Shown here piece by piece: positions 7,556-42,631 of a stretch of 43,922 nucleotides of DNA. The notes under the pieces are model-generated. The model worked only from the letters and a program-made list of their open reading frames with translations. It was not told where the DNA came from and did no database searches. The stretch spans positions 1-43,922 of IMG/VR virus record IMGVR_UViG_3300045988_002593; one strand, 5' to 3'. This DNA comes from a virus. Taxonomy: Duplodnaviria > Heunggongvirae > Uroviricota > Caudoviricetes. Both the position numbers and the translations under genes were made by a program. Each line of letters begins with the position of its first letter. Within the stretch, counting starts at the first letter, position 1.

Positions 7556-7584
7556 TTGACTTTTCACTAAAAATATGATAAGCT
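7556..7584 (+). promoter_or_regulatory. Promoter with extended -10 (TTGACT-17-TAAGCT) preceding conserved element A
   Basis: -35 TTGACT, TG at -15/-14, -10 TAAGCT; identical architecture at 39399-39427; -35 overlaps the 14-bp palindrome ACTATTCGAATAGT (7543-7556). Confidence 0.45.
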
Positions 7585-7590
7585 CCACCT

Positions 7591-7791
7591 GAGCTTGTGA
7601 AGTATGAACAAGCGACCGCGGCGCGGGCAGGTAACGGAGCGGGACGTAAGTCCTGAGTGTAGTTACGCTGACGCGTTCGGAAGGGCCATACTCTATTGCT
7701 TGTGTAAAAAGTAACAGGTTTACTTAGATTACGCCGTTTCTATGTTTAAATGATAAGGACTAGCGCCCTGCTTTAAGGCAGGGCTTTACTT
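7591..7791 (+). ncRNA. Candidate structured leader/ncRNA, copy A (conserved core about 7591-7698)
   Basis: About 118 nt conserved with 39424-39541; compensatory stem GGAC-GUAA-GUCC here versus GUGC-GUCA-GCAC in copy B; ends at an intrinsic terminator. Confidence 0.3.
7765..7791 (+). terminator. Intrinsic terminator between element A and the spanin genes
   Basis: GCCCTGC/GCAGGGC stem, TTTAAG loop, then TTTACTT. Confidence 0.5.
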
Positions 7792-10199: not shown

Positions 10200-10499
10200 A
10201 TGGTCAAGACCGGAAAAGGCTTGCCGCGCAGCCTTCAGAATGTCGATTTCGGCGACTTTGATATCCCAGTCACGCCTGCTACTACCAGCGTAGTTGGTGG
10301 GGTTAAAAAGTCAGCTACTGTGGCTGCACCTGCGGCCATTACCGCCGCCGCCGGGGTGCAGTCCGCCGCGGCACCGACTAAGGAAGAGTTCGACGCCCTT
10401 GTAGCGGAGTACAACAAACTCCGAACCGATGTTACCGCGCTGCGCACTACCGTAGCAAATCTGTTGACTGCGCTTAAAAACGCAGGAACCGTAAGCTAA
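10200..10499 (+). CDS. Hypothetical structural protein (Ala-rich, C-terminal coiled coil)
   Basis: ORF with RBS AAGAGG; between the capsid and head-tail genes. Confidence 0.5.
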   Translation: MVKTGKGLPRSLQNVDFGDFDIPVTPATTSVVGGVKKSATVAAPAAITAAAGVQSAAAPTKEEFDALVAEYNKLRTDVTALRTTVANLLTALKNAGTVS

Positions 10500-10511
10500 A
10501 GGAGCTTAAAA

Positions 10512-10862
10512 ATGGTTGATGTAATCAAACGTCGTATTACCGGTGTTTCTGATGATTCTCCTGCCGATGGTCAGGTTGAAATCGATATGGCGAATATCTC
10601 GCCAGCGTCTTTTTCTGCCGCGCTTGCGGCTACCACCGCAGTTACGGTGGGGCAGACTATGACTCTTACCGTAGTGGTAACTGGCGGTCTGGAGCCGTAT
10701 TCCTACCAGTGGTACAAAGATAACAACGCCATCGACGGAGCCACCGCAGCTACCTATGCGAAGGCGTCCACTACTACCGCAGATTCAGGCACGTATAAAG
10801 TGGTTGTTCACGATGTGTATGGTAATATTATCTCCAGCAGCACCGTAGCAACTGTGTCTTAA
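10512..10862 (+). CDS. Ig-like domain protein (possible decoration protein)
   Basis: Motif YSYQWYKDNNAI...DSGTYKVVVHDVYGN resembles an Ig-like fold; paralogous to 6739-7200. Confidence 0.5.
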   Translation: MVDVIKRRITGVSDDSPADGQVEIDMANISPASFSAALAATTAVTVGQTMTLTVVVTGGLEPYSYQWYKDNNAIDGATAATYAKASTTTADSGTYKVVVHDVYGNIISSSTVATVS

Positions 10863-11081: not shown

Positions 11082-11594
11082 ATGCCGCTAATCGTGGAAA
11101 CTGGGGTGATCGTCCCAAATGCCGACAGTTACATTAGTCTGGCTGACGCCCGCGCGTTAGCGGCTAATTATGGCCTTGAGCTGCCGGAAGACGATACCGC
11201 AGCAGAGGTGGCCTTACGCAACGGTGCTACTTATGTAGGGCTTGCAGAACCGCAGATGTGCGGTCGTCGAGTATCCGCCGAACAGTCTCTTGCATACCCC
11301 CGCACCGGCGTTACGTTAAACGGGTTCCCGGTGGTCAACAACGCCATTCCGAAACAGGTGATTCTTGCGCAGGTAATCGCTGCCGCTACATATGGCGAGG
11401 GCACCGAAGTCCGGGCTAACTCAGACGGTCGCGCCGTGCAGACTGAGCGTGTCGAGGGTGCGGTAACAGTGACCTACTTCAACAATGGCAACAGTGGCGC
11501 TACGACCGCGATTACCGCTGCTGACGACGCTTTACGCCCGTTATTGTGTGGCGGTCTTAACAATGGTTTCTCGTTTAACGTGTACCGGGGTTAA
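11082..11594 (+). CDS. Putative head-tail connector / adaptor protein
   Basis: Position between the capsid and tail genes; 170 aa. Confidence 0.45.
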   Translation: MPLIVETGVIVPNADSYISLADARALAANYGLELPEDDTAAEVALRNGATYVGLAEPQMCGRRVSAEQSLAYPRTGVTLNGFPVVNNAIPKQVILAQVIAAATYGEGTEVRANSDGRAVQTERVEGAVTVTYFNNGNSGATTAITAADDALRPLLCGGLNNGFSFNVYRG

Positions 11595-11596
11595 AA

Positions 11597-11722
11597 ATGG
11601 CGAAGACTAAATCAGAGATATTCACGCTAATCGGTTCCGAGCTACCGGACAACACGACCGGACAACACGACCGGACTTATTACGCCTGCGAAGTTGCGCG
11701 GGGTATTAACCCAGATGGCTGA
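11597..11722 (+). pseudogene. 5' fragment of a structural gene split by a 13-bp tandem duplication
   Basis: ATG at 11597 with RBS; frame ends at 11722; deleting one 13-bp repeat unit fuses it in frame with 11694-12224. Confidence 0.4.
11645..11676 (+). repeat. Tandem direct repeat CCGGACAACACGA, about 2.5 copies
   Basis: Two full 13-bp units (11645-11657, 11658-11670) plus a partial third; the unit is not a multiple of 3. Confidence 0.9.
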
Positions 11723-12224
11723 CTCACCTATTTACGCCACTCCGGGTGTTAAAGAGGTTGAAGTTCTCCGCGCTGCGTCGACAGTAGCGCAAGCGCCTAC
11801 CGCAGTAGATACGGCGTTGCAGGTATCGTTCGGCTCTGCTCAGGGTAGTGCATCTGACCCGGTAATGATTAATGCTGCGGGGCTGGTTACATTCAACACC
11901 GCGGGTAACTATGCCGTTCGCATCAAGTTACAGGCCGGTCGCTCCGGCGCTAGCGGAACGTCTATCCTGTTGTCGCGTATCCTCATTAACGGCGCTCAGT
12001 ACGGCTCACCAGCAGCTACGAAACTTGTTAGCTCGGAAACCACCATCCCTATTGAATCCCGTGTAGTGATTAACCCAACCGCCGGGCAAACATTCGCCGT
12101 TCAGATTATGCGAGATAGCGCCGGGACTAACTTCGGAGGCGTATACCCGCAGGTGGCTACTGTAACTGCATGGGGCACGGCACCGTCCGCGCTACTGGTT
12201 ATTTCGAGACTGGAGGCTGCCTGA
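11694..12224 (+). CDS. Putative head-tail joining / neck protein (downstream part of the split gene)
   Basis: ORF track; reading frame opens at 11631; an internal ATG at 11715 could reinitiate. Confidence 0.45.
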   Translation: MRGVLTQMADSPIYATPGVKEVEVLRAASTVAQAPTAVDTALQVSFGSAQGSASDPVMINAAGLVTFNTAGNYAVRIKLQAGRSGASGTSILLSRILINGAQYGSPAATKLVSSETTIPIESRVVINPTAGQTFAVQIMRDSAGTNFGGVYPQVATVTAWGTAPSALLVISRLEAA

Positions 12225-12583
12225 TGAGCACTGCTTTCAGTAAACGTATGCAAGGCGTGGGTACACGCCTGTTAACCAAATTCGGTAGCACGGTATCTCT
12301 GATTCGCGCTGGCTCGAAAGTGTGGGATGAAGTTCTCGGTGAGTACGTCTGGTCTGCGGATGAAGTGTTGCCGTTGAAGGCCGTTCCGGTTCCTGTTAAT
12401 GCGGGTCTGGTGAACGGTACGACGATTCAGGCTGGTGACATGATTGTTAAAGCCGATTACAGCGTCGTTCCTAAGATGGAAGACAAAGTGCAATTCGGCG
12501 GCGAGCAATGGTCCGTCGTAGCCATTGAGAAGAAGGTGGTTAACGATGATGTTGTGGCCTACTTTATTCAGGTGAGAAAATGA
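12224..12583 (+). CDS. Putative head closure / neck protein
   Basis: ATG overlaps the upstream stop (TGATG); within the head-tail joining cluster. Confidence 0.45.
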   Translation: MSTAFSKRMQGVGTRLLTKFGSTVSLIRAGSKVWDEVLGEYVWSADEVLPLKAVPVPVNAGLVNGTTIQAGDMIVKADYSVVPKMEDKVQFGGEQWSVVAIEKKVVNDDVVAYFIQVRK

Positions 12584-17056: not shown

Positions 17057-17163
17057 GTAGTATGTTAGAATAATTTTGCGCCTAGTGTCGCACACGAAAA
17101 GCGGGTGGTTCCCGTCTGGCGCATTTCCTTTAACCAGTAACCTCTTAACCAAAGGATTAAAGA

Positions 17164-33019: not shown

Positions 33020-33208
33020 ATAAAATTTCGCAATACGGACTATGTTCTCGAAATCATTCATATCAACAGGTTCGAATTCATCCTCCACATGGTTGTATCG
33101 CACCATCGTGCCGTTCAGGAACGTAAACGATTCCGAATGGATATAACCGCCCCAGCGCCATATCATCACAAAATCTTTATCTGTGGGCATTTCATTTACT
33201 TGAATCAT
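33005..33208 (-). CDS. Hypothetical protein
   Basis: ORF track; start overlaps the upstream gene stop. Confidence 0.5.
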   Translation of the reverse strand: MIQVNEMPTDKDFVMIWRWGGYIHSESFTFLNGTMVRYNHVEDEFEPVDMNDFENIVRIAKFYLTPE

Positions 33209-34446
33209 TATAAATCCTCCTCTGTTACCCTATTCCACTCAGGACGTTTGTCGTCTGCCGTTGCAACACATGGTGCGCCTGGCTTACGGGTAATGAAGTC
33301 TTTCAGTTCTTCTTCCGGTATGACTTTAACCGCTTCGGTTGGCGTCATGAGCACTTGCTTCATTAGCGCTATGCCATACTTGCCAGCCACTTTCTCTGCA
33401 TCTTTCCACGCACGATTACCCGGGCGGCCTTCAACCAGCTTGTACCCCGGCACTTTCTTACCGGAATGCAACGCGGCAGCCATCGCTTTCTCAACCTTGT
33501 CGATGTGCTGGCGCAACAACGGCAACTTCTCATACTCAGCTACGAGTTGCTCCGGCGTAAGTTCCAGGGCAAAGTCGTCCTCCAGTTCTTCCGCCAGCAC
33601 AGAGTTAACCGTCTTTGTACGCGCGGCGCACTGTTCAGAGAACCGGCACCACTGACAACCATCAACCGACGGCTTGAAGTCTGACGCTTTCAGGTTCTTC
33701 TTGCCACGGTGATAAGCATCAAGCGCTAACAGTGCGCGTTTCTGTGCGAACTTAGCGAACAGCTCCATACCTTCAACCGAGATGTCCCACTCCGACGCGC
33801 CGCCAGTGTACGGCTGGAAGATTACCAGACGAACAACTGTTATGTTATAACGTCTCTTGAGTCGGCGATAAACACCGAGAGCGTAAAGCATAAGCTGCTT
33901 GTTTTCTTTCGCTTCGACGCGATGCCGCCCGGTTTTCAGGTCGCCGATAATGAGCATGTGCTCGTCGGTGTTTGCCAGTTCCTGGACAGCAACGAGGTCA
34001 GCGGTTCCGAACGTCTCAACGCCTTCATACCCCGGATGCAATACCTCAGTAAGATTGACACGCATTTCCAGCTTGGCGTAAGTCGCTACGTCTATAATCG
34101 CTTTGCAGTAGTCGGTGTACTTGCGCACCTGCTCAATCATGTCCGCCGTAATCAGTACCGCGCCTTTCATCGGGCTGATTAGCGCCTTAATCTGACCTTT
34201 GCCTTCATCCAGTACGTAAGCGCCGACTTCACGCTCCAACGGCAACGCAGTGCCGCGTATATAGGCGTTGAGATGGACCTCAGCTATGGTGTGCATGGCG
34301 GTTCCTAATACAGCGGCTTTACCCGACGTGTTAGGGGTATCTTTTTCACACGCCAGCGACGCAGCGCATGACAGCCACTTTTTAGCGCCTGACGGTGACA
34401 GTAAGGCGTGTACATCATTATTGCCGCCTCGTTCTTTTAGAATCAT
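33208..34446 (-). CDS. Cas4-like / RecB-family PD-(D/E)XK exonuclease with Fe-S cysteine motif
   Basis: IIGDLKTG and QLMLYALG motifs; N-terminal Cys plus C-terminal C-x2-C-x5-C (CQWCRFSEQC). Confidence 0.6.
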   Translation of the reverse strand: MILKERGGNNDVHALLSPSGAKKWLSCAASLACEKDTPNTSGKAAVLGTAMHTIAEVHLNAYIRGTALPLEREVGAYVLDEGKGQIKALISPMKGAVLITADMIEQVRKYTDYCKAIIDVATYAKLEMRVNLTEVLHPGYEGVETFGTADLVAVQELANTDEHMLIIGDLKTGRHRVEAKENKQLMLYALGVYRRLKRRYNITVVRLVIFQPYTGGASEWDISVEGMELFAKFAQKRALLALDAYHRGKKNLKASDFKPSVDGCQWCRFSEQCAARTKTVNSVLAEELEDDFALELTPEQLVAEYEKLPLLRQHIDKVEKAMAAALHSGKKVPGYKLVEGRPGNRAWKDAEKVAGKYGIALMKQVLMTPTEAVKVIPEEELKDFITRKPGAPCVATADDKRPEWNRVTEEDL

Positions 34447-39398: not shown

Positions 39399-39427
39399 TT
39401 GACTTTTACTAAGAAATGTGCTAAGCT
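39399..39427 (+). promoter_or_regulatory. Promoter with extended -10 (TTGACT-17-TAAGCT) preceding conserved element B
   Basis: Same architecture as 7556-7584: -35 TTGACT, TG at -15/-14, -10 TAAGCT. Confidence 0.45.
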
Positions 39428-39433
39428 CCACCT

Positions 39434-39665
39434 GAGCTTGTGAAGTATGAACAAGCGACCGCGGTGCGGCAGGAAACGGAGCGGTGCGTCAGCACTGAGT
39501 GTAGTGTCGCTGCCTGCATTCGGAAGGGCCATAATCTATTGTAAATCCCGTCTAAATAACCCAAGTCACTAATAATTAAAAGTTTCTATAGTTGCCGTAA
39601 GCAAGGTAGAGAGTACTTCACTCCGCTGGGGTGGGCTAAAGCCCACCCGCTGCGTTGCGTACTCT
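39434..39665 (+). ncRNA. Candidate structured leader/ncRNA, copy B (conserved core about 39434-39541)
   Basis: Conserved with 7581-7698; compensatory stem GUGC-GUCA-GCAC; divergent 3' part ends in an 8-bp GC-rich hairpin (39629-39648). Confidence 0.3.
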
Positions 39666-42125: not shown

Positions 42126-42308
42126 ATGGTACAGAGATATACCTACGACCAGATATTCGGGTTTACTCCCGATGTTGAGGGCGTGTTAGTGCTTTACGAA
42201 GATTACGCGAAACTCGAAGCTGAGTTACAGAAATACAAGGGCCAGTTCCCGGATTACGTTGAGTGTGCGAACTGCGGGTCAGTTACACATGTGGAGGGGG
42301 TGGAGTGA
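42126..42308 (+). CDS. Hypothetical protein with C-terminal CxxC
   Basis: ORF track, start at ATG 42126 with an AGGAG RBS. Confidence 0.45.
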   Translation: MVQRYTYDQIFGFTPDVEGVLVLYEDYAKLEAELQKYKGQFPDYVECANCGSVTHVEGVE

Positions 42309-42631
42309 TGTCTCTTGCAACTGACATCCTGAAACTAAGCGGCCTTGCGCCGCTGTCACCGAGAGCGAAGACACGTATACACAAGCGTCGCCGTAACGTG
42401 CTGTACCCATAGATACAAGAACGGCGTAAAGCTATCCGCGCCTGTGGATTCCAGAACGGAAAGGCCGTGAATCTAGGAGAGTTTAAAACACAGGAACGCG
42501 CGGCAATCGCTAATCGGTTATTTAATTACTGGAAATCGCTCGGATACGATGATATTCCGACTAAACCGCAGAGACGACAATACATCTGGCGTCATAAATA
42601 AACCGTTATTAAGATAATTCCTAACCGTGCT

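Follow-up and report, generated by a model that had tools for sequence, protein, structure and literature searches.

A Kagunavirus coliphage carries a perfect 13-bp tandem duplication that interrupts a gene found as a single intact unit in its relatives, and its probable explanation is a very recent loss-of-function frameshift, produced by slippage in an accessory virion gene whose translation is likely to restart at the ATG at 11715. The locus lies in a stretch of 43,922 nucleotides of viral DNA, here called the window, which comes from a member of the genus Kagunavirus (Guernseyvirinae) with E. coli as its host. The original prediction had placed three readings side by side: a slipped-strand on/off switch, a recent inactivating mutation with possible reinitiation, and a sequencing or assembly artefact. 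The second is the best supported, the orthologues being single genes of 204 aa and the window's gene, once repaired, being that of phage Bas72. We consider it likely that the duplication is a real mutation in the phage DNA.

The repeat tract and the gene that it interrupts

Tandem Repeats Finder describes the tract as a perfect 13-bp repeat of 2.5 copies (100 % matches, score 66), the highest-scoring of all the tandem repeats in the 43.9-kb window. The original prediction had read it in the register CCGGACAACACGA, at 11645-11657 and 11658-11670, followed by a partial CCGGAC at 11671-11676, and its two full units with a partial third are borne out both by the sequence and by the program. The run of self-identity at an offset of 13 nt extends over 20 nt at the tract versus 11 nt for the runner-up in the window, and in 200 dinucleotide-preserving shuffles the longest such run averaged 10.3 nt and never exceeded 15. 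The repeat is thus far beyond chance.

The unit, whose length is not divisible by 3, is sited after codon 22 in the coding region (table 1). The open reading frame from the ATG at 11597 ends at 11722, in agreement with the ORF list, and when one unit is removed in silico it fuses in frame with 11694-12224, as had been claimed, to give a single ORF of 204 aa. The addition of two units yields an open ORF of 213 aa, and neither the removal of two units nor the addition of one restores an ORF. The upstream product consists of 22 native N-terminal residues (MAKTKSEIFTLIGSELPDNTTG) and 19 out-of-frame residues. Accordingly split are the tblastn matches, with one segment covering query residues 1-22 at 100 % identity and the other residues 17-204 at 98.9 %; the frameshift falls between two predicted N-terminal helices.

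Table 1. Coordinates in the window of the repeat, of the two parts of the interrupted gene and of the flanking genes
Feature	Coordinates	Strand	Description	Evidence
13-bp tandem repeat	11644..11676	+	ACCGGACAACACG x2 + ACCGGAC; one unit more than in every relative checked	
Upstream fragment	11597..11722	+	41-aa ORF, TGA at 11720-11722	ORF list, translations, tblastn
Downstream fragment, likely restart ORF	11715..12224	+	Met36, 169 aa	ORF list, SD scoring, AF2 limits, tblastn
Head-tail adaptor Ad1	11082..11594	+	Intact, upstream neighbour	PHROG 477, E 2.7e-56; Pfam PF20557, E 2e-51
Head closure Hc1 / Neck1-type	12224..12583	+	Intact, downstream neighbour	PHROG 161 / 17193

The downstream ORF is listed from a TTG at 11694, in the +1 frame relative to the upstream ORF; this codon was rejected as a restart site, having no Shine-Dalgarno (SD) sequence (dG +0.1). 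The ATG at 11715, which the original prediction had pointed out, overlaps the upstream stop (ATGGCTGA) and is preceded by an SD-like GGGGU (dG -6.3 kcal/mol) at a longer than optimal spacing of about 9-11 nt; its strength is comparable to that of the gene's native start (anti-SD dG -5.7 kcal/mol). Because the stop overlaps the ATG and the SD is usable, a termination-reinitiation event at this position is plausible. By the domain limits of an AlphaFold2 (AF2) model, the ORF restarted at Met36 would hold the whole C1q/TNF-like knob (residues 47-204) and would lack the N-terminal helices.

Both neighbours, Ad1 and Hc1, are 100 % identical to their counterparts in phage SHAK7858. In the sequence TGATG the stop of the interrupted gene and the start of Hc1 overlap, and Hc1 is preceded by its own strong SD (GGAGG, dG -9.3 kcal/mol). 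Continued translation by way of the restart would limit polarity on the essential genes downstream, Hc1 having its own SD in any case. Annotation pipelines should mark such a locus as a disrupted gene or pseudogene and not as two genes.

Scans with Rfam and for tRNAs found no match at or near the repeat locus. Elsewhere in the window, 17075-17139 (+), an intergenic stretch ahead of the gene for the tail assembly chaperone (17164), matches the int-alpA RNA of Rfam (RF02996; 36.6 bits versus a gathering cut-off of 35.8, E 4.6e-4). An element of about 145 bp occurs twice, at 7556-7698 and 39399-39541 (+), with 88 % identity, and Bas72 and SHAK7858 have it at both sites too. A TTGACT box stands at its beginning, and its inner hairpin has the form CGGGAC/GUCCUG in one copy and CGGUGC/GCACUG in the other, apparently through compensatory changes. 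Its z-scores for folding (-1.1 and -0.5) are weak, and Rfam gives no match; the element may be either a small RNA or a promoter that was duplicated together with its leader.

An intact gene in the relatives and the origin of the duplication

The 1.5-kb region round the repeat matches 115 phage records, the best of them being those of Bas72 NicoleGrasset and SHAK7858 (98.9 % identity including the gap), and the single-piece matches span 1,489 nt versus 1,502 nt of query, exactly 13 fewer. In Bas72, SHAK7858, 22664BS2, Bas73, Schulenburg and phiSD1 the orthologue is one CDS of 615-651 nt, and in the alignment each of the six lacks exactly one 13-nt unit; the order Ad1, gene, Hc1 is the same in all of them and in K1G and K1H. 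When 81 nt across the junction were used as a blastn query, all 20 full-length matches spanned 68 nt and were without the extra unit. More broadly, 494 of 508 phage records gave a full-length single match to the gene, and the ORF was intact at 75 of the 76 IMG/VR loci that encode the N-terminus. The comparison with orthologues in related phages that had been proposed as a check therefore found single intact genes and not two separate ones.

The exact 33-nt string of the 2.5-copy allele had no match in IMG/VR, in a collection with one genome per GTDB species or in the JGI metagenome contigs, and exact look-ups of the 41-, 169- and 176-aa products found none on record in any assembly. The complete genomes of E. 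coli likewise contained no match to the allele, and the sole match in the plasmid collection, CP088689, a Kagunavirus filed as an E. coli "plasmid", is without the extra unit. Among the isolates and assemblies searched there was no copy-number polymorphism, the extra unit being found in the window only.

Two observations on these relatives may be recorded here. Many Kagunaviruses have an extra small ORF, with about 95-128 nt of added DNA, between the interrupted gene (a member of PHROG 3614) and Hc1; an example is Bas73_0017, of 132 nt (positions 1330-1461 of the Bas73 locus, L004), and the ORF is absent in the window, Bas72 and SHAK7858. SHAK7858 itself (L008, OR594183.1), a Kagunavirus-like siphophage that shares 95.5 % identity with the window across 31.5 kb, has a GenBank record that places it in Autographiviridae; Studiervirinae; Kayfunavirus and names it vB_EcoM, apparently a mislabel of both taxonomy and morphotype.

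The ancestral allele reads ACCGGAC-CAACACG-ACCGGAC, a 7-nt direct repeat with its arms 13 nt apart, in codons 17-23 (PDNTTGL). Once one unit is removed, the window's gene differs from that of Bas72 at 0 of 615 nt; the structural block around it is only about 96.7 % identical to Bas72, and the remaining genome diverges by about 3-4 %. The median pairwise dN/dS of the gene family, from 34 alleles, is 0.063, a value that indicates strong purifying selection on the gene in nature. Since the repaired gene is identical to that of Bas72 and dN/dS is low, no decay has followed the event, and the duplication is the sole lesion in the gene. By these comparisons the duplication is either very recent or artefactual.

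A perfect duplication of 13 nt that includes one arm of a repeat is what slipped-strand mispairing classically leaves behind. The strand being synthesized at replication would have slipped from the second ACCGGAC back to the first and recopied 13 nt, so that the tract came to hold 2.5 copies and the frame moved by +1 after codon 22. Ribosomes that begin at the native start would then terminate after 41 codons at the TGA at 11720 and would probably reinitiate at the ATG at 11715 to make a 169-aa product that has a complete, putatively trimeric C1q/TNF/BclA-like knob but is without the conserved N-terminal helices, the presumed virion anchor or trimerization stalk. Such an anchor-less knob would no longer be displayed on the particle, and the phage would stay viable because the knob domain is apparently dispensable for plaque growth. 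In this scheme we infer the slippage mechanism, the restart at 11715, the role of the N-terminus as an anchor, the location of the protein at the neck and the presence of the extra unit in the DNA itself and not just in the assembly.

The event resembles slippage duplications of the Streisinger type in every substantive respect: the duplicated unit is bounded by a short direct repeat (7 nt, 13 nt apart), the copy is perfect, head-to-tail and shifts the frame, and reversion by the loss of one unit is to be expected. With its mechanism read from the footprint in the sequence, it is a textbook case. The type of event is already known, and as an ordinary strain-specific frameshift it matters little in itself.

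Artefact, switch or recoding?

The phage DNA might instead hold the 1.5-copy allele, the extra 13 nt having come from library preparation, consensus calling or assembly. We judge this unlikely. The 2.5-copy allele is found nowhere else in the searched collections, the gene is under strong purifying selection, and a repaired gene 100 % identical to that of Bas72 is what an artefact superimposed on an intact gene would look like; however, a real mutation of very recent date would account just as well for the uniqueness and the identity with Bas72. The periodic tract of 33 nt is shorter than any read and too short for a de Bruijn cycle at the usual k, which needs at least k+13 periodic bases. Moreover, a perfect tandem insertion of 13 nt is untypical of Illumina, Nanopore or homopolymer error, and the duplication is bounded by the very microhomology to be expected of slippage in vivo.

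The quality of the rest of the assembly also bears on the question. The duplication is the only indel relative to Bas72 in 10.4 kb of structural genes. Among the 77 CDSs of SHAK7858 that have a counterpart in the window, the repeat-bearing gene is the sole frameshifted one, so that a generally error-prone assembly was rejected; the other out-of-frame indels are all intergenic or lie in locally divergent, compensated regions. The in-frame stops that were flagged concern the exonuclease, which is shortened by 4 residues at its C-terminus, an ORF of 39 aa that is probably spurious, and an ORF of 97 aa with one real TAG. The exonuclease change is trivial: the gene (33199-34446, minus strand) ends 4 codons before that of SHAK7858, GAA TTA having become TAA TGA (33210-33205). 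The TAG is a second unique change of the loss-of-function type. It lies at 42410-42412, at codon 35 of a 97-aa accessory ORF (42308-42598), where Bas72 and SHAK7858 have GAG (Glu); outside it, the ORF is 97-98 % identical to its counterparts in those two phages. As another unique damaging change it could hint at an imperfect consensus, and it fits equally a slightly imperfect consensus or a bottlenecked isolate that gathers lesions in its accessory genes.

Would a real duplication be an accident or part of a device? In a slipped-strand contingency (phase-variation) switch, each gain or loss of the unit would toggle display of the knob, and lysates would contain both decorated and undecorated virions. 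The unit has the length for this, each step changing the frame, and an allele of 2.5 copies with 20 nt of tandem homology would be expected to revert much more often than it arises, as is general for tandem repeats of this kind. In related genes, furthermore, small tandem duplications and deletions are numerous at sites other than this one. But at least 17 genomes hold the identical 1.5-copy substrate (15 junction-identical blastn records, the IMG/VR locus L010 and CP088689) and none of them is expanded, nor did any of three large collections, viral, genomic and metagenomic, contain a match for 2.5 or more copies. The 1.5-copy tract that would constitute the "ON" state is, besides, far shorter than known contingency repeats.

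Nor is the tract conserved. Identity at offset 13 is at most 4 nt in 74 of the 76 IMG/VR loci and 5 nt in one, and the 7-nt microhomology is present in a single locus, L010. Synonymous changes break the 7-nt repeat elsewhere, including in 22664BS2 and phiSD1, although the peptide PDN(T/Q/D)(T/S)G-ITP is conserved across the IMG/VR loci. Because the peptide is conserved and the repeat is not, selection acts on the protein and not on the DNA tract, and the 7-nt repeat is a by-product of codon choice in one clade instead of a conserved contingency tract. The length variants of the family were also considered as traces of slippage at the repeat site, and this was rejected, their indels sitting at many other positions. 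The contingency loci in surface genes of Neisseria and Haemophilus share with the present case a repeat in the 5' part of a gene for a surface-exposed protein and a unit not divisible by 3. They differ from it in that here there is a step from 1.5 to 2.5 copies only, a tract in 1 of 76 relatives, no polymorphism among those searched and purifying selection on the peptide at the amino-acid level. The switch proposed in the original prediction is consequently not supported, neither by copy-number polymorphism nor by a substrate shared by the relatives, and we regard it as very improbable; the 2.5-copy allele has the marks of an unstable mutation rather than of an evolved switch. A fast-reverting toggle between 1.5 and 2.5 copies confined to the Bas72-like clade, giving mixed virions with and without the C1q-like knob, we hold to be just as doubtful. 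If it were true, it would be a form of bet-hedging for a decoration that is useful in some environments and costly in others, for instance where host defence or antibodies target it.

The duplication might also be bypassed during translation. A +1 or -2 ribosomal frameshift between 11631 and 11720 would give a near-full-length protein with an insertion of 4-5 residues; roughly 90 nt are open in both frames, and the allele with two further units, which is frame-equivalent, yields the open 213-aa ORF, so that a short insertion is compatible with an open frame. Yet 11631-11722 shows no evident slippery or shift-prone motif, the GGC that precedes the stop cannot re-pair in the +1 frame, and since all the relatives lack the two-frame layout, there was no opportunity for a signal to evolve. 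A programmed frameshift site was rejected on these grounds, the relatives being single-frame and the frame-0 stop being without a visible shift-prone codon. Frameshifting that occurs spontaneously is too rare, by orders of magnitude, to be of consequence. We consider this the most improbable of the readings, and the recent slippage frameshift remains our preferred one.

A conserved but apparently dispensable knob

The repaired 204-aa protein matches PHROG 3614, a family of unknown function, over its whole length (1-204 of 204, E 1.4e-110). It has 1,204 close relatives, nearly all of about 204 aa. The clusters at 50 % identity that match it number 768, and in them the part from residue ~45 to 204 is found again at the C-terminus of proteins 170-1,250 aa long, some with tail-fibre repeats. 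AlphaFold2 was run on an intact orthologue (P0001, 96 % identical) as a monomer; the model (pLDDT 88.8) has helices at 5-14 and 26-37 (pLDDT 60-70) and a confident beta-sandwich at 47-204. The predicted fold corresponds to the ten-strand jelly-roll beta-sandwich of the C1q/TNF/BclA-C superfamily. The Pfam BclA_C match is below threshold (17.6 bits versus a cut-off of 38), and the resemblance is therefore one of fold only and not of Pfam membership; the sequence search of the PDB gave no relative, only noise (E > 1).

The label of head-tail structural gene given in the original prediction stands as regards position, the gene lying between Ad1 and Hc1; the fold, in contrast, is that of a C1q/TNF knob of the fibre-tip type and not that of a canonical connector. 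The designation "neck protein" in some records is similarly positional only. The Guernseyvirinae have been described as structurally uncharacterized (PMC13243795), and our search of the literature on Kagunavirus and Jerseyvirus found nothing specific on where the PHROG 3614 protein is located or on its proteomics. Knobs of the BclA C-terminal and C1q-TNF type are trimeric and sit at the tips of fibres, as in BclA of B. anthracis, F-BclA of the Ena fibres and the distal domain of the short tail fibre of cyanophages A-1(L)/A4. The PHROG 3614 protein differs from these in having no collagen-like stalk, only about 45 N-terminal residues, and in its marginal sequence similarity to them; its trimer is putative, coming from a monomer model.

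Natural alleles suggest what the loss of this protein entails. Phage K1H, an isolated Kagunavirus (L089, NC_027994.1, 7758-7985), has an in-frame deletion of residues ~66-194 that leaves a CDS of 75 aa without the entire knob. In the record of K1G (L009, NC_027993.1, 9255-9867) an insertion of 1 nt in a CCC run cuts the gene short at 148 aa; it may be a true mutation or a homopolymer error of older sequencing. Taken together, the knob deletion of K1H, the frameshift in the K1G record and the allele of the window imply that this conserved knob gene is apparently non-essential for plaque growth. The frameshifted stf of lambda PaPa is a precedent for a laboratory or isolate lineage with a frameshifted fibre gene. 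K1H also appears to lack two capsid-decoration genes homologous to 10200-10862 of the window.

Close homologues on genome-sized contigs display many independent in-frame tandem duplications and deletions of 3-8 aa at varied positions, together with two C-terminal frameshifts (the indel-bearing homologues in the alignment are P0005, P0006, P0009, P0010, P0014-P0023, P0027, P0031 and P0118). This pattern suggests that indels of the slippage type are a common mode of mutation in this gene or group of phages and that the protein tolerates them.

T4 Hoc, the phi29 head fibre gp8.5 and the side tail fibres (stf) of lambda are likewise conserved accessory surface proteins that viable phages can lose; the dispensability of the PHROG 3614 protein differs from theirs in being read from natural alleles and not from a constructed knockout. 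The added value of the present case is modest, consisting of a fold assignment for PHROG 3614 and of evidence that the knob is dispensable. The window's allele differs from the gene of Bas72 by 13 nt alone, and it could be copied directly to make a clean knockout of the gene in Bas72, with which the function of the knob could be tested; the repeat site may also be a safe place for a payload in a Kagunavirus therapeutic chassis. To be dispensable for plaque growth yet selected in nature is the typical profile of an environment-specific adhesin or decoration protein, and by this analogy the knob of the Kagunaviruses may be of that kind.
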